From Bacteroidota bacterium (lineage in GTDB: Bacteria; Bacteroidota; Bacteroidia; UKL13-3), in assembly GCA_027487835.1 (NCBI GenBank), contig JAIYCU010000012.1, positions 21,718-85,717 of the forward strand: a stretch of DNA of 64,000 bases, written 5' to 3'. Each line of letters starts with the position of its first letter. The first letter of the stretch is position 1. Both the position numbers and the translations under genes were made by a program. A model generated the notes under the pieces. It saw nothing but the letters and a program-made list of their open reading frames with translations. It did not search any database and was not told the origin of the DNA. This document shows, piece after piece, positions 401-35,925 of this stretch.

Positions 401-589
401 GATTTGTGTTTTCCGTATGCGAAAATAAAAAGCTTTTTCTTTAAACCAAAAACAAAGCAGATAGTTGTTAACATCTTAATGGGAAAACTAAAAAAATGCC
501 GTTCTCCAAAAAAATCCTCCTTTTAAATAATGTGTTGTAGCACTCGATATAAAATCCTTAAATTGCGTCATTAATCAATCTAAAATCCA

Positions 590-3496
590 ATGAAAAAAGG
601 ACTTTTACTTGCCGGTTTCTTAGCATTTTCAGGAATAGTATCTCAAGTAGGTGCGCAAACTCCTGTTGCTACTGCCGCTAACCCTAACCAAACCCAATTA
701 CTTGAAAAAGTAACCTCTACCCCTGGCGAATTAAAAATTTCGTACGAAAAGTACATTATGCCAAACGGGCTAACCTTAATTATTCACGAAGATCATTCAG
801 ATCCAATTGTACATGTGGAAGTAACCTACCATGTTGGTTCTGCAAGAGAATCGGCTGGTAAATCTGGATTTGCTCACTTTTTTGAGCACATGATGTTTCA
901 AGGTTCTGTGAATGTAAATGATGAAGAGCATTTTAAAATTGTTTCGGGTGCTGGTGGACAAATGAATGGTACTACTAATCGTGATCGTACCAATTATTTT
1001 GAAACAATGCCTGCAAACTATCTTGAAACAGCCTTATGGTTAGAAGCAGATAGAATGGGCTTTTTATTAGATTCTGTTACGCAAAAGAAATTTGAAGTAC
1101 AGCGTGCTACCGTAAAAAATGAAAAAGGTCAACGTGTTGATAATGTTCCTTATGGCAAAGTAGATGAAATTAAGGATGCAGCTTTATATCCAAAAGGACA
1201 TTCTTATAATTGGCCAACAATTGGGTATTTAGAAGACCTTGATAGAGTTAATGTTGAGGACCTTAAAAACTTTTTTATGCGTTGGTATGGTCCAAACAAT
1301 GCATGTTTAGTAGTTGCTGGTGATGTTGTTCCAGCAGATGTAATTAAATTAGCTGAAAAATATTTTGGTTCAATTCCTCGCGGTCCAGAAGTTAAGCCTA
1401 TGCGCTTAGAGCCTGTTAGATTGCCAGATACACGTTACAGTAGTTATCCTGATAATGTTTTTGCACCAATGCATATGTTTGTTTGGCCTACACCAAAATC
1501 ATATGCTGCCGATGAGCCAGCTTTAGATGTATTAGGTTATGTATTAGGAACAGGTAATAACTCTATCATTTACAAGACTTTTACCAAACCTGAAAAAGCA
1601 TTCCAAGCCTACAGTTATAATTACGGTTCTGAGTTAGCAGGGGAGTTTGCAATCGCATTTATTGCAAATCCATTTTTTGATGGCGAAAATAATTTTGAGA
1701 AAAACTTACAAGCCATGTTTACTGATTTTGATACCAAAGGAATCTCTGATGATGACATTAGCCGCGCCAAAGGTCAATTTGAAACCTCTATATATAGCGT
1801 TATGAATAGTGTTGGTTCAAAAGCTTCAATCCTTAGTCAAACTTGGTATTTAAGCCATGGCAATCCAAGATTAGATAAAAATTACAACTTAAATGACGAA
1901 TTAGCACGTTACCAAAAAGTAACCAAAGAAGATGTTATGCGCGTATTCCGTCAATACATTAAAGATAAAAATTATGTGATGGTAACTGCTTTCCCTAAAA
2001 GCTCAAATGCTGCTGTTGGTAAAGAAGAAACTAAAGAAACTACAACTTCTGGTGTAGCGGTAAAAACAGAATTAGAATACAAAGGATTAAGCTATACAAC
2101 TCCAAAAGATAATTTCGACAGAAGCAAAAGGCCAGTACCAGGAGCTACAAAAATCACAAATGTGCCAGATTTTTACACTGCAAACTGGACTAATGGTATT
2201 AAAGTAATTGGAACCGCAACCAGCGAAACCCCAATGATTACTATTTTATTAAGCATGAAAGGTGGAAATATTGCAGCAGGCGATCCTGCTAAAGCTGGAT
2301 TAGCTGCCATTACCGCTAATATGATGCAAGAGGCAACGCTTAATTATACAAGTGAAGCTTTTGAAAATGAACTATCTAAATTAGGTGCCTCAATTAATTT
2401 TGGTGCGGGTACAGACAATCACTATATGCAAGTGGTTACTCCTAAGAAGAACTTAGATGCTACCTTAAAGTTAGTAGAAGAAAAAATAATGCGTCCTAAG
2501 TTTAATCTTGATGAATTTAAACTAAATCAATCTCAAGCATACCAAGGCGTTAATGCAGAAAAATATGATGCTGCCTCTACCGCAGATTTAGCTTTTGCTA
2601 AATTGGTTTATGGTAAATCTATTGCTGCTGAGCCTGTTGGTGGAACCTTAAAAACGATAAAGTCTTTCACGTTAAAAGATGTTCAAAACTTTTACGATCG
2701 TTATTATGCACCAGATTTTGCTACTTTAACCATCGTTGGGGATGTAAGTGAGCAAGATATTTTACCTAAGTTGAAGTTTTTACAAGATTGGAAAAAGAAA
2801 AGTGTAGTTATTCCTGCTGTTCCGGCACCAGTTGCAGTTGCTGGTTCTAATAAAAATGTATTGTTAGTTGACAAATACAAAGCAGCACAATCTGAAATTC
2901 GTGTAGGTATGTTAGGCCAAAAGTATGATTATAATGGTAAGTTCTTTAAAACCGCTGCTATGAATTTCCCATTGGGAGGTGCATTCAATAGCCGTTTAAA
3001 TTTAAATCTTCGCGAAGACAAAGGATTTACTTATGGTATTCGTTCATTTAATTCTGGCTACAAAGACCGTGTAGGTGTATTTGAAATTGCAACAGGCGTT
3101 CGTACATCTGCAACAGATAGCGCCTTGCGTGAAATTATGAACGAAGTTTCAAATTATAGAGATAAGGGTATCACAGACGAGGAACTTCAATTTATGAAGA
3201 ACTCTATCACCCAAAGTGATGCTTTACGTTATGAATCAAATTTCCAGAAAGCATCATTCTTAAATCGTTTGGTTGAGCTAGAATTACCAAGAGATTACAT
3301 CGCACAACAAAATGCAACAGTAAAATCATTAACCAAAGAAGAAATTAATGCCTTAGCAAAAGAAGTTTTAAAGCTTGAGCAAATGACAATTCTAATTGTA
3401 GGTGATAAAGAAAAAATTAAAGCACCTTTAGAAAAATCTGGCTACAAGATTGTTGATTACAAAGAAGTAGAAGTTGCCTCATACGAGAAAAACTAA
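590..3496 (+). CDS. M16 family zinc metallopeptidase (insulinase/pitrilysin-like), secreted
   Basis: 968 aa ORF; N-terminal signal peptide; inverted zinc motif HFFEHMMFQGS (HxxEH) plus downstream NGTTNRDRTNY; two-lobed M16 length. Confidence 0.85.
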   Translation: MKKGLLLAGFLAFSGIVSQVGAQTPVATAANPNQTQLLEKVTSTPGELKISYEKYIMPNGLTLIIHEDHSDPIVHVEVTYHVGSARESAGKSGFAHFFEHMMFQGSVNVNDEEHFKIVSGAGGQMNGTTNRDRTNYFETMPANYLETALWLEADRMGFLLDSVTQKKFEVQRATVKNEKGQRVDNVPYGKVDEIKDAALYPKGHSYNWPTIGYLEDLDRVNVEDLKNFFMRWYGPNNACLVVAGDVVPADVIKLAEKYFGSIPRGPEVKPMRLEPVRLPDTRYSSYPDNVFAPMHMFVWPTPKSYAADEPALDVLGYVLGTGNNSIIYKTFTKPEKAFQAYSYNYGSELAGEFAIAFIANPFFDGENNFEKNLQAMFTDFDTKGISDDDISRAKGQFETSIYSVMNSVGSKASILSQTWYLSHGNPRLDKNYNLNDELARYQKVTKEDVMRVFRQYIKDKNYVMVTAFPKSSNAAVGKEETKETTTSGVAVKTELEYKGLSYTTPKDNFDRSKRPVPGATKITNVPDFYTANWTNGIKVIGTATSETPMITILLSMKGGNIAAGDPAKAGLAAITANMMQEATLNYTSEAFENELSKLGASINFGAGTDNHYMQVVTPKKNLDATLKLVEEKIMRPKFNLDEFKLNQSQAYQGVNAEKYDAASTADLAFAKLVYGKSIAAEPVGGTLKTIKSFTLKDVQNFYDRYYAPDFATLTIVGDVSEQDILPKLKFLQDWKKKSVVIPAVPAPVAVAGSNKNVLLVDKYKAAQSEIRVGMLGQKYDYNGKFFKTAAMNFPLGGAFNSRLNLNLREDKGFTYGIRSFNSGYKDRVGVFEIATGVRTSATDSALREIMNEVSNYRDKGITDEELQFMKNSITQSDALRYESNFQKASFLNRLVELELPRDYIAQQNATVKSLTKEEINALAKEVLKLEQMTILIVGDKEKIKAPLEKSGYKIVDYKEVEVASYEKN

Positions 3497-31902: not shown

Positions 31903-33921
31903 ATGAAGAAAATTATAATGTATTCAGCCTTATTGGCCTATATTGGAATGGGTTCAGCCATGATTTATAAAAACCTCAAAGGAATTGATGAAAATGCCAT
32001 CGATAAAACCATAATACCTGGTGAAGATTTTTATCGGTATGCCAATGGTACTTGGTTAAAAAATAATCCTGTTCCTGCAAGTGAAAGCAGATGGGGAAGT
32101 TTTAATCAGGTAACTGAAAGAAATAATGATGTTTTAAGACAAATTCTTGAAGCAGCTTCTGCCAATAAATCAGCAAAAATTGGTAGCGCTGAACAAAAAG
32201 TTGGAACTTTTTATAGACTTTTTATTGATACATTAAAAAGAGATAAGCAGGGAATCGAACCAATCTTACCTCTACTTTCCGCAATCAATAAAATAAATAA
32301 TACAACAGAACTCATGTCTGTTGTTGCTGATTTAAACAAAAAAGGAATTCGTAGTTTTTTTGGTTTTTATGTGTCTCAAGATTTAAAGAATAGTAAATCA
32401 TATATTCCTTACATCTCACAAGGCGGTTTGGGTTTGCCCGATCGCGACTATTATTTGAAGGATGATGCTAAGTCGAAAAAAATTAGGGAAGAATACCTTG
32501 CGCATGTGAAAAATATTTTTTCTCTTTGTGGTTATGGTGCTGAAAGTAATGAAGAACTAATCCTAACTATAGAAACTGAATTAGCAAAGGCATCTATGTC
32601 TAGAACTGAAAGAAGGAACCAAGAAAAGCAATACAATAAGCGAGCATTGACAACATTTCTAAGTACCTACCCAAGTTTAAATTTTCAAACATACCTTCAA
32701 CAAATTCAAATTAGTCAATTTGATAGCCTCATTATTTCACAGCCCGATTTCTTTGCTCAATTAAATCAAGTTTTTAACACCCATTCAATCAATGATTTAA
32801 AAATTTATTTAAGATGGTGTTTATTTAATCAAAGTGCCCCTTATTTAGATTCAAAATTAGAAAAGCAGAATTTTCATTTCTATAGCACGGTTTTAACCGG
32901 TGCCAAAGAACAAAAGCCTCTATGGAAAAGAGGAATTGCTGCTGCCAACGGAACCGTTGGAGAACTATTAGGACAGCTTTTTGTGGCTAAAGTTTTTACT
33001 CCTGCCTCCAAGCAGCGTGTAAATGCAATGGTTGATGACATTGTCGCAGCTTTCAGAATTCGAATAAACAACTTAGCATGGATGAGTGCTGAAACAAAAA
33101 CTAAAGCATTAGAAAAGCTGGCTTCTTTTAATAGGAAATTTGGTTACCCAGATCAATGGAAGGACTATAGTTTACTAGAAATTAAAGAAGATTCATATAT
33201 CGAAAATGTAATTAGAGCCAGTACTTTTAGTTTTAATGATAATATTAACAACCTAGGAAAGCCAATAGACCGCAACCGTTGGGGAATGTTGCCTCAAACA
33301 GTAAATGCTTACTACAGCCCTACCCTAAATGAAATTGTTTTTCCAGCAGCAATAATGCAACCTCCATTTTTTGATGCCAACGCAGATGATGCAGTAAATT
33401 ATGGCAGTATTGGCGCTGTAATTGGACATGAACTTACCCATGGCTTTGACGACCAAGGTGCAAAATATGGCCCTGATGGGAATTTGAAAAGTTGGTGGAC
33501 TGAAGAAGATAAAAAACAATTTGAAGCGAGAACAAAAGTATTAGTGGATCAATTCAATGGATATTTTGTAAGTGATAGTTTACATATCAATGGAGAGTTA
33601 ACTTTAGGTGAAAATATTGCAGATTTAGGCGGACTTACCATAGCATTTGAAGCGTTTAAAATACGTCAATTGAAAAATCCAGGTAAAACTATTAATGGAT
33701 TTACGCCAGAACAAAGGTTCTTTATTGGCTTTGCCCAAATATGGAAAAATAATGTAAGACCAGAAGCCTTAAGGCAGTTAATTCTAACCGACCCACATTC
33801 GCCTGGTGAATTTAGAGTTTTAGGTACTTTAGGAAATATGCCACAGTTTTATGAAGTTTTTAGTGTAAAAGAAGGCCAAAAAATGTATCGAAGTGCGGAA
33901 ACAAGGGCTAATATTTGGTAA
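31903..33921 (+). CDS. M13 family metallopeptidase (neprilysin/PepO-like)
   Basis: 672 aa; HELTHGFDDQG (HExxH), ENIADLGG (ExxxD), NAYY motif; signal/anchor at N-terminus. Confidence 0.85.
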   Translation: MKKIIMYSALLAYIGMGSAMIYKNLKGIDENAIDKTIIPGEDFYRYANGTWLKNNPVPASESRWGSFNQVTERNNDVLRQILEAASANKSAKIGSAEQKVGTFYRLFIDTLKRDKQGIEPILPLLSAINKINNTTELMSVVADLNKKGIRSFFGFYVSQDLKNSKSYIPYISQGGLGLPDRDYYLKDDAKSKKIREEYLAHVKNIFSLCGYGAESNEELILTIETELAKASMSRTERRNQEKQYNKRALTTFLSTYPSLNFQTYLQQIQISQFDSLIISQPDFFAQLNQVFNTHSINDLKIYLRWCLFNQSAPYLDSKLEKQNFHFYSTVLTGAKEQKPLWKRGIAAANGTVGELLGQLFVAKVFTPASKQRVNAMVDDIVAAFRIRINNLAWMSAETKTKALEKLASFNRKFGYPDQWKDYSLLEIKEDSYIENVIRASTFSFNDNINNLGKPIDRNRWGMLPQTVNAYYSPTLNEIVFPAAIMQPPFFDANADDAVNYGSIGAVIGHELTHGFDDQGAKYGPDGNLKSWWTEEDKKQFEARTKVLVDQFNGYFVSDSLHINGELTLGENIADLGGLTIAFEAFKIRQLKNPGKTINGFTPEQRFFIGFAQIWKNNVRPEALRQLILTDPHSPGEFRVLGTLGNMPQFYEVFSVKEGQKMYRSAETRANIW

Positions 33922-33922
33922 C

Positions 33923-34702
33923 ATGAAAAAAATACAAACCTTCCCCTTAATTTTAATTGTTTTATTTTTAAGTTCATGCGGCAATTCATGGATTCCATTG
34001 AGCTTGGATGAAACTTTTGGTAGTCAGAGTGCTTCTCAAATTAATGATGGCATATCTGACATGCAGGTTCTTGATCAATCTGAATACCCAAAAGCCTATG
34101 AATATTTAAATGAGTTAAAAGATAAAATACTTGCCTCAGGAAAAGTAGAGCATGCCAAGGATTTTAAGTGGGAACTTAGAATAATTGAAGATGATTCTGT
34201 TTTAAATGCATTTTGTTTACCAGGTGGCTATATTTATGTTTATACAGGCTTGATGAAGTACTTAGATTCCGAACATGCTTTGGCTGGCGTACTTGGACAT
34301 GAAATGGCTCATGCGGATTTAAGACATGGGACTTCTCAATTAGTTAAGAATATGGGCCTCAGTCTTGCCTTGCAACTTATTTTTGGCGGGGATGCCTCAC
34401 AATTGGTAAATATTGGAGCCAATTTAGTGTCACTATCATTTAGCAGAGATGACGAAAAAGAAGCAGATATGAAATCTGTGGAATATTTGTATCAAACAGA
34501 ATTAGATGCAAGAGGTACAGGCGTATTTTTTGAAAAGTTAAAATTGGATAATAAAGACCCAGAAATTGTAGAATTTTTAAGTACGCATCCAAATCCAGAG
34601 AACCGCGTAGAGGAAATTAATAAAAAATGGAAAGAACTTGGTGGTAAAAGTGGAAAGATAAATAAAAGTAGTTACCAAGAAATGCTTGAAGATTTGCCTT
34701 AA
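33923..34702 (+). CDS. M48 family zinc metalloprotease lipoprotein
   Basis: ATG at 33923 gives the MKKIQTFPLILIVLFLSSCG lipobox; HEMAHADLRHG (HExxH) and downstream E. The track start 33893 overlaps the M13 gene. Confidence 0.75.
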   Translation: MKKIQTFPLILIVLFLSSCGNSWIPLSLDETFGSQSASQINDGISDMQVLDQSEYPKAYEYLNELKDKILASGKVEHAKDFKWELRIIEDDSVLNAFCLPGGYIYVYTGLMKYLDSEHALAGVLGHEMAHADLRHGTSQLVKNMGLSLALQLIFGGDASQLVNIGANLVSLSFSRDDEKEADMKSVEYLYQTELDARGTGVFFEKLKLDNKDPEIVEFLSTHPNPENRVEEINKKWKELGGKSGKINKSSYQEMLEDLP

Positions 34703-34738: not shown

Positions 34739-35197
34739 TTAATCTCTTAGTTTAAATTCTATATTTTTGTTTATAGCAGCAAGTTTAATCTTTAAATCTG
34801 ATGTTATACTTTGATTTTCTATCAAAAGTTGGTCTAAATCATTTAGGTAGCTAATTTCTCGATGTACTATTTTGTGGTAGGCAAGCACTTGCTCAGTACG
34901 CTGTTCAATAGCTACTAAACAATCTTTAATTAGCTCTATTTCAGCTATAATTCCATTAAAATTAGGCTTTTCAACCGCACTTCTTTTCATAGTGCCAACA
35001 CCTAGAATTAACCAATCAGGATTTATCTCTGGAAACTTTATTAATATTTTTTGAATCAGTTCTAAACCAGGCTTATTCCTGCCTGTGCTAATGTGCGTTA
35101 GCATAGGCAATGATATTTCTAATAGGCTAGCAAATCCGCTTTTCGTAAGTTGCTTGCCATCCATTATACTTAACACACGTATATTTATCTCATCCAT
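34739..35197 (-). CDS. putative DNA-binding protein with XRE-like HTH (hypothetical regulator)
   Basis: 152 aa; N-terminal segment KQLTKSGFASLLEISLPMLTHISTGRNKP resembles an HTH; divergent from the ACAWWTGT-rich intergenic region. Confidence 0.4.
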   Translation of the reverse strand: MDEINIRVLSIMDGKQLTKSGFASLLEISLPMLTHISTGRNKPGLELIQKILIKFPEINPDWLILGVGTMKRSAVEKPNFNGIIAEIELIKDCLVAIEQRTEQVLAYHKIVHREISYLNDLDQLLIENQSITSDLKIKLAAINKNIEFKLRD

Positions 35198-35234
35198 GTA
35201 AATAACTGATTAACAATAGTAAAATGCGAATATA

Positions 35235-35453
35235 AACATTTGTTTATACAAATGTAAAGCTAATAAACATAAGTTAATAAGGTCTAAAACAAATGTTAAC
35301 TAACTGTATTGATATAAACTTTAGATTTTTTGTCCTAAACGATTCATATTTAATTGTTTATAGGTAAATACATTGTACGTTAAAACATATGTAAACAAGC
35401 TTAAACAATTGTATAATCACTCATTTTTAAGGTAATCCAAACAATTGTTAGGT
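35235..35453. promoter_or_regulatory. cluster of seven ACAWWTGT palindromic operator-like sites in divergent promoter region
   Basis: acatttgt, acaaatgt (x2), tacaattgta-like acattgt, acatatgt, acaattgt (x2), most with AAAC 5' flank, within ~220 bp between genes 34739..35197(-) and 35458..35925(+). Confidence 0.5.
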
Positions 35454-35457
35454 GAAA

Positions 35458-35925
35458 ATGCTTTATACAATTATGAAAGAAAAGGTATTAGAATACGAGA
35501 CAATAATTGCACGTCCTTTAAATGAGGTTTTTGATTTTTTTAGTAAAGCAGAAAATTTAGATGCCCTAACCCCACCGCATTTAAAGTTTAAAATTATTAC
35601 TCCAACCCCTATTCCAATGTTTATTGGTCAATTGATTAAGTATCGAATTTCTTTTTTTGGTATTCCATTTTACTGGAAAACACGCATCACCGAATGGGTT
35701 CCAGGGAAGAAATTTGCAGATGAGCAATTAAGTGGTCCTTATACCAAATGGTATCATGAGCATTTTTTCGAGGAAAGGGATGGATCAACTTATATGATTG
35801 ATAGGATTACCTATCTTTCTAAGGGATGGATACTCGCTCCCTTTTTACATTGGTTATTTGTTGACAAGAATGTAAAGCAAATATTTGAATTTAGAGAAGA
35901 ACAACTAAAGAAGCTGTTTAAATAG
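35458..35925 (+). CDS. SRPBCC (START/Bet v1-like, polyketide-cyclase/dehydrase-type) family protein
   Basis: ~155 aa, pattern KVLEYETIIARPLNEVFDFFSKAENLDALTP typical of SRPBCC ligand-binding proteins; ATG 35458 preferred over track GTG 35452. Confidence 0.55.
   Translation: MLYTIMKEKVLEYETIIARPLNEVFDFFSKAENLDALTPPHLKFKIITPTPIPMFIGQLIKYRISFFGIPFYWKTRITEWVPGKKFADEQLSGPYTKWYHEHFFEERDGSTYMIDRITYLSKGWILAPFLHWLFVDKNVKQIFEFREEQLKKLFK

Follow-up and report, generated by a model that had tools for sequence, protein, structure and literature searches.

An array of ACAWWTGT sites conserved upstream of a small XRE-type regulator gene in Bacteroidota, probably its own operators

The 64-kb stretch of Bacteroidota DNA analysed here (the window) contains an AT-rich gap between two divergent genes, one encoding a small HTH protein on the minus strand and one encoding an SRPBCC protein on the plus strand. 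The features of the locus are listed below, with site positions given relative to the start codon of the HTH gene and L numbers denoting the loci with which the window was compared.

33893-34702, plus strand: M48 metallopeptidase gene with a lipoprotein-type signal peptide, convergent with the HTH gene (28 loci)
34739..35197, minus strand: XRE (Cro/CI-type) HTH gene, 152 aa with a C-terminal 70-residue helix, the proposed binder of the array
35198..35472, no strand assigned: divergent intergenic region with the site array, 275 bp, 22.5% GC
35213..35220, no strand assigned: degenerate site ACAATAGT with one mismatch, reading TTTACTATTGTTAA on the minus strand, about -24 from the HTH start
35236..35243, no strand assigned: site ACATTTGT at -46 from the HTH start; L001 and L002 also have a -46 site
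35248..35255, no strand assigned: site ACAAATGT at -58, reading TTTACATTTGTA on the HTH strand; the most widely conserved position
35267..35274, no strand assigned: degenerate site ACATAAGT with one mismatch at -77; exact in orthologues at -77/-78
35289..35296, no strand assigned: site ACAAATGT at -99; most loci have a site at -99/-100
35370..35376, no strand assigned: 7-mer aatACATTGTacg (ACATTGT, ACA-N-TGT), outside the ACAWWTGT pattern and not counted as a site
35385..35392, no strand assigned: distal site ACATATGT at -195; many loci keep a site at -195/-196
35405..35412, no strand assigned: distal site ACAATTGT at -215; L001 likewise has a -215 site
35441..35448, no strand assigned: distal site ACAATTGT at -251, 25-32 nt upstream of the SRPBCC ATG
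35473..35925, plus strand: SRPBCC / Polyketide_cyc gene, a possible target (Pfam PF03364, E = 9.6e-07)

The window contains nine exact copies of ACAWWTGT, six of which lie inside the gap and span 213 bp. The first-pass annotation had described seven copies of an 8-bp palindrome in a 254-bp gap. The cluster it pointed to is real, but it consists of six exact copies, as the one at 35370 is a 7-mer of the form ACA.TGT, which matches once in the gap and seven times in the whole window and has no positional conservation in L001. True palindromes are limited to ACAATTGT and ACATATGT, whereas ACAAATGT and ACATTTGT carry inverted ACA/TGT arms flanking a non-palindromic centre. The length of 254 bp applies if the SRPBCC gene starts at GTG 35452, as in the ORF list; a public gene call places the start at ATG 35458 (155 aa), and only ATG 35473 (MKEK...) is conserved among SRPBCC orthologues, from which the gap measures 275 bp. 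The AAAC 5' flank that had been noted at most sites was borne out, with AAACA present at five of the six sites on the plus strand.

The same annotation had placed the clustering far above chance, and this held. Using 20,000 shuffles of the gap's own composition, we obtained an expectation of 0.047 copies per 275 bp, with a maximum of 2, compared to the six observed (Poisson P(>=6) ~1e-11). Of the ten further AT-rich stretches in the window (GC <= 0.27), nine had no copy and one had a single copy, so the cluster also passed the test for a compositional artefact. Together, these results confirm that the cluster is real and not compositional. The three exact sites outside the gap (2156, 31149, and 53561) are all intragenic, in ORF 584-3493, an ABC ATPase gene, and trpS, and one-mismatch matches outside the gap do not exceed background (74 in all compared to 83 expected), such that no regulon members were found in the window. 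The rest of the window has 3 exact copies, with ~7.75 expected for the whole window. An RNA element in the gap was also considered and rejected, as an Rfam scan of 35000-35700 by E-value matched no family.

The AlphaFold (AF2) model of the HTH protein (pLDDT 90.6) contains a five-helix Cro/CI-type domain at residues 1-65 (helices 3-14, 19-25, 30-38, 45-54, and 60-65), followed by a linker and a continuous helix from 81 to 151. The HTH domain model superposes on 434 repressor, P22 c2, DdrO, and C.AhdI at 1.8-2.6 Å, and the protein has the five-helix fold of XRE proteins. Its match to Pfam HTH_3 (PF01381) scored 14.5 bits (E = 0.038), under the gathering cut-off of 23, yet seven more distant homologues (P0024, P0026-P0029, P0032, and P0033) have a precomputed PF01381 match. 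For this reason, the protein is a divergent member of the XRE family rather than a non-member. It has no ligand-binding domain. Across the family, hydrophobic residues recur along the long, amphipathic helix with a strong period of 3.5 residues, as expected of a coiled coil, and the predicted recognition helix, ...LTHIS(S/T)GRNKPG..., is invariant, which fits the invariance of the DNA motif described below.

We found 33 homologues of the HTH protein in a large protein database. The wider HTH subfamily numbers 11,052 representatives with E <= 1e-3, of which 3,428 reach E <= 1e-10 and correspond to ~3,400 clusters counted at 50% identity. The full-length architecture is much less common, with only 16 representatives reaching E <= 1e-30. 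The family is restricted to Bacteroidota, and a literature search found no published description of it or of its motif in Bacteroidetes. A phage or mobile origin was rejected, as IMG/VR viral contigs held no relatives of the HTH protein and 50,697 phage records gave only one weak, HTH-only match. Four subfamily members, P0037 (546 aa), P0043 (349 aa), P0048 (507 aa), and P0050 (211 aa), contain 2-6 tandem HTH copies with the repeat signature ...GRNKP...DWLL.GEG, and such multi-HTH proteins might read phased site arrays with a single chain. We also considered a bHLH/E-box system. CAWWTG, which the motif contains, has the form of an E-box, and a MYC2 bHLH profile marginally matched the C-terminal helix (E = 0.0097). 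This idea was rejected, as the protein has no basic region, the AF2 model has one continuous helix, and the similarity looks to be of the generic coiled-coil type.

For comparison across orthologous loci, we collected 49 loci from GTDB species representatives by a pattern-plus-tblastn scan. The sequences come mostly from metagenome-assembled genomes, and nearly all are labelled as Bacteroidota MAGs. Protein identity to the window HTH protein ranged from 34 to 69%, except for one truncated 62-residue match at 71%. The 400-bp regions upstream of the 49 HTH orthologues (18.9 kb) contained 212 copies of ACAWWTGT, compared to 19 in the remaining 266 kb. This corresponds to 11.2 and 0.07 sites per kb, respectively, a ~157-fold difference across 49 loci that are phylogenetically non-independent. 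Outside the upstream regions, the motif was depleted relative to dinucleotide shuffles (19 copies compared to 34.4 +/- 5.5). The scarcity of ACAWWTGT away from HTH upstream regions may reflect avoidance of spurious sites.

The sites recur at fixed positions relative to the HTH start codon, chiefly -100, -78, -58, and -36, with further recurring sites at -135, -161, -173, -196, -215, and -251. The window's sites at -46, -58, -99, -195, -215, and -251 match the site positions in L001, its closest relative, which has an exact site at -77, where the window copy carries one mismatch. When the window is aligned with L001-L004, the islands of invariant sequence correspond to the sites and are separated by diverged spacers; CTAACAATTGTTTG at the -251 site is invariant in all five sequences. 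The block TTTACTATTGTAAATCA at the degenerate 35213..35220 site is conserved in L001-L003. The array lies upstream of the same small HTH gene in ~60 Bacteroidota genomes. The loss of the sites at orthologous loci had been named as an outcome that would undo the operator proposal; instead, the conservation check was strongly passed, with ~157-fold enrichment, fixed positions, and diverged spacers.

A separate conserved block, AGGAGGG...ATTGTTTT...CTG(C/A)CA...TTTAC, was observed in L005, L011, L015, L018-L028, and L042. It lies at approximately -290 to -215 of the HTH start, between the distal sites and the SRPBCC start codon, and contains no full ACAWWTGT site.

Across the 212 sites of the 49 loci, the consensus with flanks is T-W-W-ACAWWTGT-W-W-W, with a distance of 5 bp between the centres of the ACA and TGT arms. 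An A directly precedes ACA in 84 of 212 sites. The flanks are asymmetric, with T at -2 in 172 of 212 sites and A at the mirror position in only 99. Neighbouring sites are 19-23 bp apart in 96 of ~180 intervals, with minor spacing classes of 12, 41, 61-63, 96, and 107 bp, and the distal group lies 96 bp, or ~nine helical turns, from the proximal group. All pairwise distances together follow a 10.7-bp period with a phase near 0 (Rayleigh R = 0.58, from phylogenetically non-independent counts), which places the sites on one face of the helix.

The array was retained with the HTH gene in at least five genomic contexts, as defined by clustering of flanking ORFs. Only 28 of 50 loci have the SRPBCC gene as divergent neighbour, frequently with two small membrane or zinc-ribbon genes behind it, and the array is also present in loci without SRPBCC (L013, L021, L030-L039, and L041). 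L013 and L021 instead have an aldose epimerase gene upstream of the HTH gene and in the same direction, and in L030-L034 and L035-L041 the array is present in other surroundings (an XRE-S24 gene, or Nfu and DUF4442). Control of the SRPBCC gene by the HTH protein, as originally proposed, is therefore only partly supported: the two genes are divergent neighbours in just over half of the loci, but the array persists without SRPBCC.

Two side observations concern these neighbours. The 272-aa XRE-HTH + Peptidase_S24 (LexA/CI-like) gene of L030-L034, a single clade, lies 0.8-2.8 kb downstream of the HTH orthologue and may encode one of the non-canonical Bacteroidetes LexA proteins (PMC8565304). In another clade (L006, L007, L009, and L017), a single ACAAATGT precedes the aldose epimerase gene by 99 bp. 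We rejected aldose epimerase as a regulon member, as there was no sign of selection: the four loci are near-identical and the site is degenerate in L010.

The association extends to more distant relatives, in which the motif takes the form TTTAC-N4-GTAAA. Six distant homologues (L043-L048) were picked by protein similarity; they are ~110-135 aa long and have different C-termini. In five of the six, 2-3 TTTAC-N4-GTAAA sites (0-1 mismatch, 20-23 bp apart) lie within 63 bp of the ATG, and none were found elsewhere in the ~6 kb inspected for each of these five. In the AT-rich sixth locus, L047, a single upstream site of this kind lies at -104, and six more occur in other parts of the locus. In a pattern scan of metagenomes for triple arrays, which gave at least 120 matches, those listed were mostly minisatellites and plasmid iterons, so that the scan neither delimits a regulon nor speaks against other contexts. 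Of the 42 non-tandem matches listed, 10 carry a more distant HTH homologue (33-53% identity; hmmsearch E 1e-3 to 3e-24, nine at <=1e-11) with a 3-site array 4-40 bp from the start codon. Four metagenome contigs (L070, L107, L121, and L155) carry plasmid-like iterons with a 22-bp period that contain ACAWWTGT and adjoin genes resembling Rep_3 or RepL by eye. Since these arrays share the motif, the triple-site pattern is not specific to the HTH family.

The proximal sites overlap a candidate promoter of the HTH gene. The Bacteroidetes -7 consensus is reportedly TAnnTTTG, with a -33/-7 spacer said to be ~19 nt. A candidate -7 box matching this consensus, TACATTTG, is located inside the -58 site (35256..35249, minus strand), and TAnnTTTG falls inside the -58 and/or -36 site in 40 of 43 close loci, as a consensus match only. 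The orientation of the site at -58 is fixed, with 20 copies of ACATTTGT to 1 of ACAAATGT, while at -100 it is reversed (1:18 in the same order). The 20:1 bias at -58 is not needed by a symmetric dimer site alone. A generic sigma-70-style scan identified TTTACA-18-TATATT at the -58 site, with 10 of 12 positions matching. No clear -33 element was found at canonical spacing for the proposed HTH promoter.

We hypothesize that the adjacent XRE protein represses its own gene through the sites as a multi-operator array, the distal members of which lie over the SRPBCC 5' region, and place the probability of this reading, drawn from sequence comparison, at roughly three in four. The first-pass annotation had proposed that the sites are operators for the adjacent HTH protein. 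This proposal is supported by the way the array follows the HTH gene and by its enrichment upstream of orthologues and distant homologues, and in orthologues and different contexts alike the motif stays upstream of the gene for the regulator itself, the pattern seen in multi-operator autoregulation. Because the array is kept upstream of the HTH gene in ~60 genomes, its sites are most likely the regulator's own binding sites. From this co-localisation we infer binding by the 34739..35197 product; repression rather than activation, cooperativity or looping, and SRPBCC control are likewise parts of the model that we infer.

In the proposed mechanism, the HTH protein would most likely dimerise or form higher oligomers via the 70-residue C-terminal coiled coil. 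The four to five proximal operators, from ~-24 to -100 and mostly 19-23 bp apart, would cover the regulator's promoter. As the -58 operator holds the -7 box TAnnTTTG, bound protein would exclude RNA polymerase, and this occlusion would therefore amount to cooperative negative autoregulation. The distal operators at -195, -215, and -251, over the SRPBCC 5' region, would probably co-regulate that gene, for which co-repression is plausible, and the distal group may loop to the proximal group. Among the observations that count against this model, the 5-bp arm spacing is unusually tight for a Cro/CI-type dimer, the flanks are asymmetric (T in 172 compared to A in 99 of 212 sites), and the core ACANNTGT is that of the published BlaI/MecI/CopY operator (PMC7253601). 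We regard as doubtful a more elaborate version, in which ACAWWTGT and TTTAC-N4-GTAAA phased at two turns would be the common recognition code of the large Bacteroidota-specific XRE subfamily, including its members with 4-6 tandem HTH copies, and a higher-order, looped or filament-like complex assembled by the coiled-coil protein over 6-8 phased sites would switch the HTH gene and the SRPBCC operon, possibly with the lipid/ligand-binding SRPBCC protein as the signal sensor.

The shared operator core raises the alternative that a different trans-acting regulator, such as a winged-helix protein of the BlaI/MecI/CopY type, binds the array, with the HTH gene as its target. The sequence TACANNTGTA is the cop box and the BlaI/MecI operator core of winged-helix repressors, a published, tight palindrome proven for the BlaI/CopY family, with an extended cop-box form RNYKACANNTGTMRNY and a 10-mer KACANNTGTM (PMC7253601). 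The core is present at all sites in the window, and TACAAATGTA at 35247-35256 fits the 10-mer exactly; both flanks occur only there, as the other five of six sites read AACA... and/or ...TGTT. Searches with phmmer, a weak test, detected no BlaI/MecI-like ORF in the window or the 266 kb of flanks, and no PF03965 winged-helix repressor gene at the locus, covering the window and the L001-L049 flanks at low sensitivity. Because the 10-mer flanks fail at five of six sites and these low-sensitivity searches found no cognate gene at the locus, this is probably not a cop-box system. In addition, the motif is absent or depleted except upstream of the HTH family and follows the HTH domain through contexts and C-termini, and the tracking of a motif with a domain through unrelated contexts is a classic signature of autoregulation. 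Thus, we consider binding by a separate regulator unlikely.

The overlap with the candidate promoter suggests another explanation, that the repeats are themselves promoter elements, either reiterated -7 boxes (TAnnTTTG) or tandem promoters with -35-like TTTACA. Such elements would account for TACATTTG inside the -58 and/or -36 sites in most loci, for the sigma-70-style match, and for the position-specific site orientation. However, only the T-preceded ACATTTGT form yields TAnnTTTG, and ACAAATGT, ACAATTGT, and ACATATGT, which make up 134 of 212 sites, lack it in that orientation. The inverted ACA/TGT arms are invariant, which is not required of promoters, successive TTTG and TA elements are 11-14 nt apart compared to a -33/-7 spacer of ~19 nt, and six to eight promoters for a 152-aa gene are implausible, so we judge this explanation improbable. 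There is even less to recommend the idea that the array is a replication origin of the iteron type, or a partition/centromere-like site, for which the HTH protein would be initiator or adaptor, and this idea is largely refuted. The ~21-22 bp periodicity in AT-rich DNA resembles iterons, and the metagenome matches listed include plasmid iterons with ACAWWTGT beside Rep_3-like or RepL-like genes, but iterons are whole ~20-bp direct repeats beside a Rep or initiator gene. Here, only an 8-14 bp core is conserved, spacers vary within and between loci, and the chromosomal locus shows conserved synteny of housekeeping genes (M13 and M48 peptidases, aldose epimerase), has no Rep gene or GC-skew switch, and is without relatives in viral contigs beyond the one weak phage match. 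That the motif is merely frequent in AT-rich intergenic DNA could be suspected from its own AT-richness and from the 22.5% GC of the gap, compared to a window mean of 35%; this compositional explanation is refuted by the gap shuffles, the ten AT-rich stretches, and the depletion of the motif elsewhere.

Among these explanations we favour autorepression by the adjacent XRE protein, a conventional autoregulatory mechanism in a regulator family so far uncharacterised. To our knowledge, very few transcription factor/operator pairs are known in Bacteroidota outside carbohydrate utilisation. The analysis offers a concrete regulator-operator pairing for a family conserved in many freshwater and environmental Bacteroidota, and it specifies the motif, the two-turn phasing of the proximal sites, a distal group ~nine turns off, and the candidate promoter overlap. 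The sharing of the motif by distant members of the HTH subfamily could allow operators to be annotated for thousands of genes. The pairing also cautions against taking the cop-box core ACANNTGT as diagnostic of BlaI/CopY regulators.

Several known systems share parts of this arrangement. SinR of Bacillus subtilis, lambdoid repressors, and C-protein circuits are functionally alike in combining an XRE HTH with helical oligomerisation and several operators over divergent promoters. SinR and the window protein both join an XRE HTH to a C-terminal helical oligomerisation domain, and SinR binds several sites at the eps/tapA promoters. There is no sequence similarity between the two beyond the fold, and the SinR motif is GTTCTYT, not ACAWWTGT. 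The C-terminus of SinR is a helical hook, whereas the window protein has a single 70-residue helix, and SinR has the antagonist SinI, while no SinI-like gene is evident here. The lambdoid, 434, and P22 repressors and the C proteins of restriction-modification (R-M) systems use two or three sites, compared to six to eight in this array, and, unlike those systems, the window locus is chromosomal, without phage or R-M context. The 434 operator is ACA-N8-TGT, whereas the half-sites abut here (ACA-N2-TGT), and, in contrast to lambdoid repressors, the window protein lacks an S24 or other cleavable or sensing domain.

The BlaI/MecI operator, (K)ACANNTGT(M), has an 8-bp core identical to that of the array, with one perfect site in the window, and BlaI/MecI/CopY systems likewise have at least two operators upstream of an autoregulated operon. 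They differ in that their regulators are winged-helix proteins while the adjacent protein here is XRE, the K/M flanks are lost at five of six sites, no PF03965 gene or BlaR1/CopA-type partner lies nearby, and their arrays are much shorter. The best sequence and structure matches to the window protein are to the XRE fold of DdrO/ImmR-type proteins, which are also small repressors without a ligand domain that autoregulate through palindromic sites. These act with a partner metalloprotease, whereas no COG2856/ImmA/IrrE-type gene adjoins the window HTH gene. The M48 peptidase gene next to it, which shares 29 bp with the end of the M13 peptidase gene (31903-33921), is unlikely to supply a cytoplasmic partner because of its lipoprotein signal peptide and convergent orientation, and is probably unrelated to control of the repressor. 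The motif also sets the two apart, as ACAWWTGT is unrelated to the Deinococcus RDRM.
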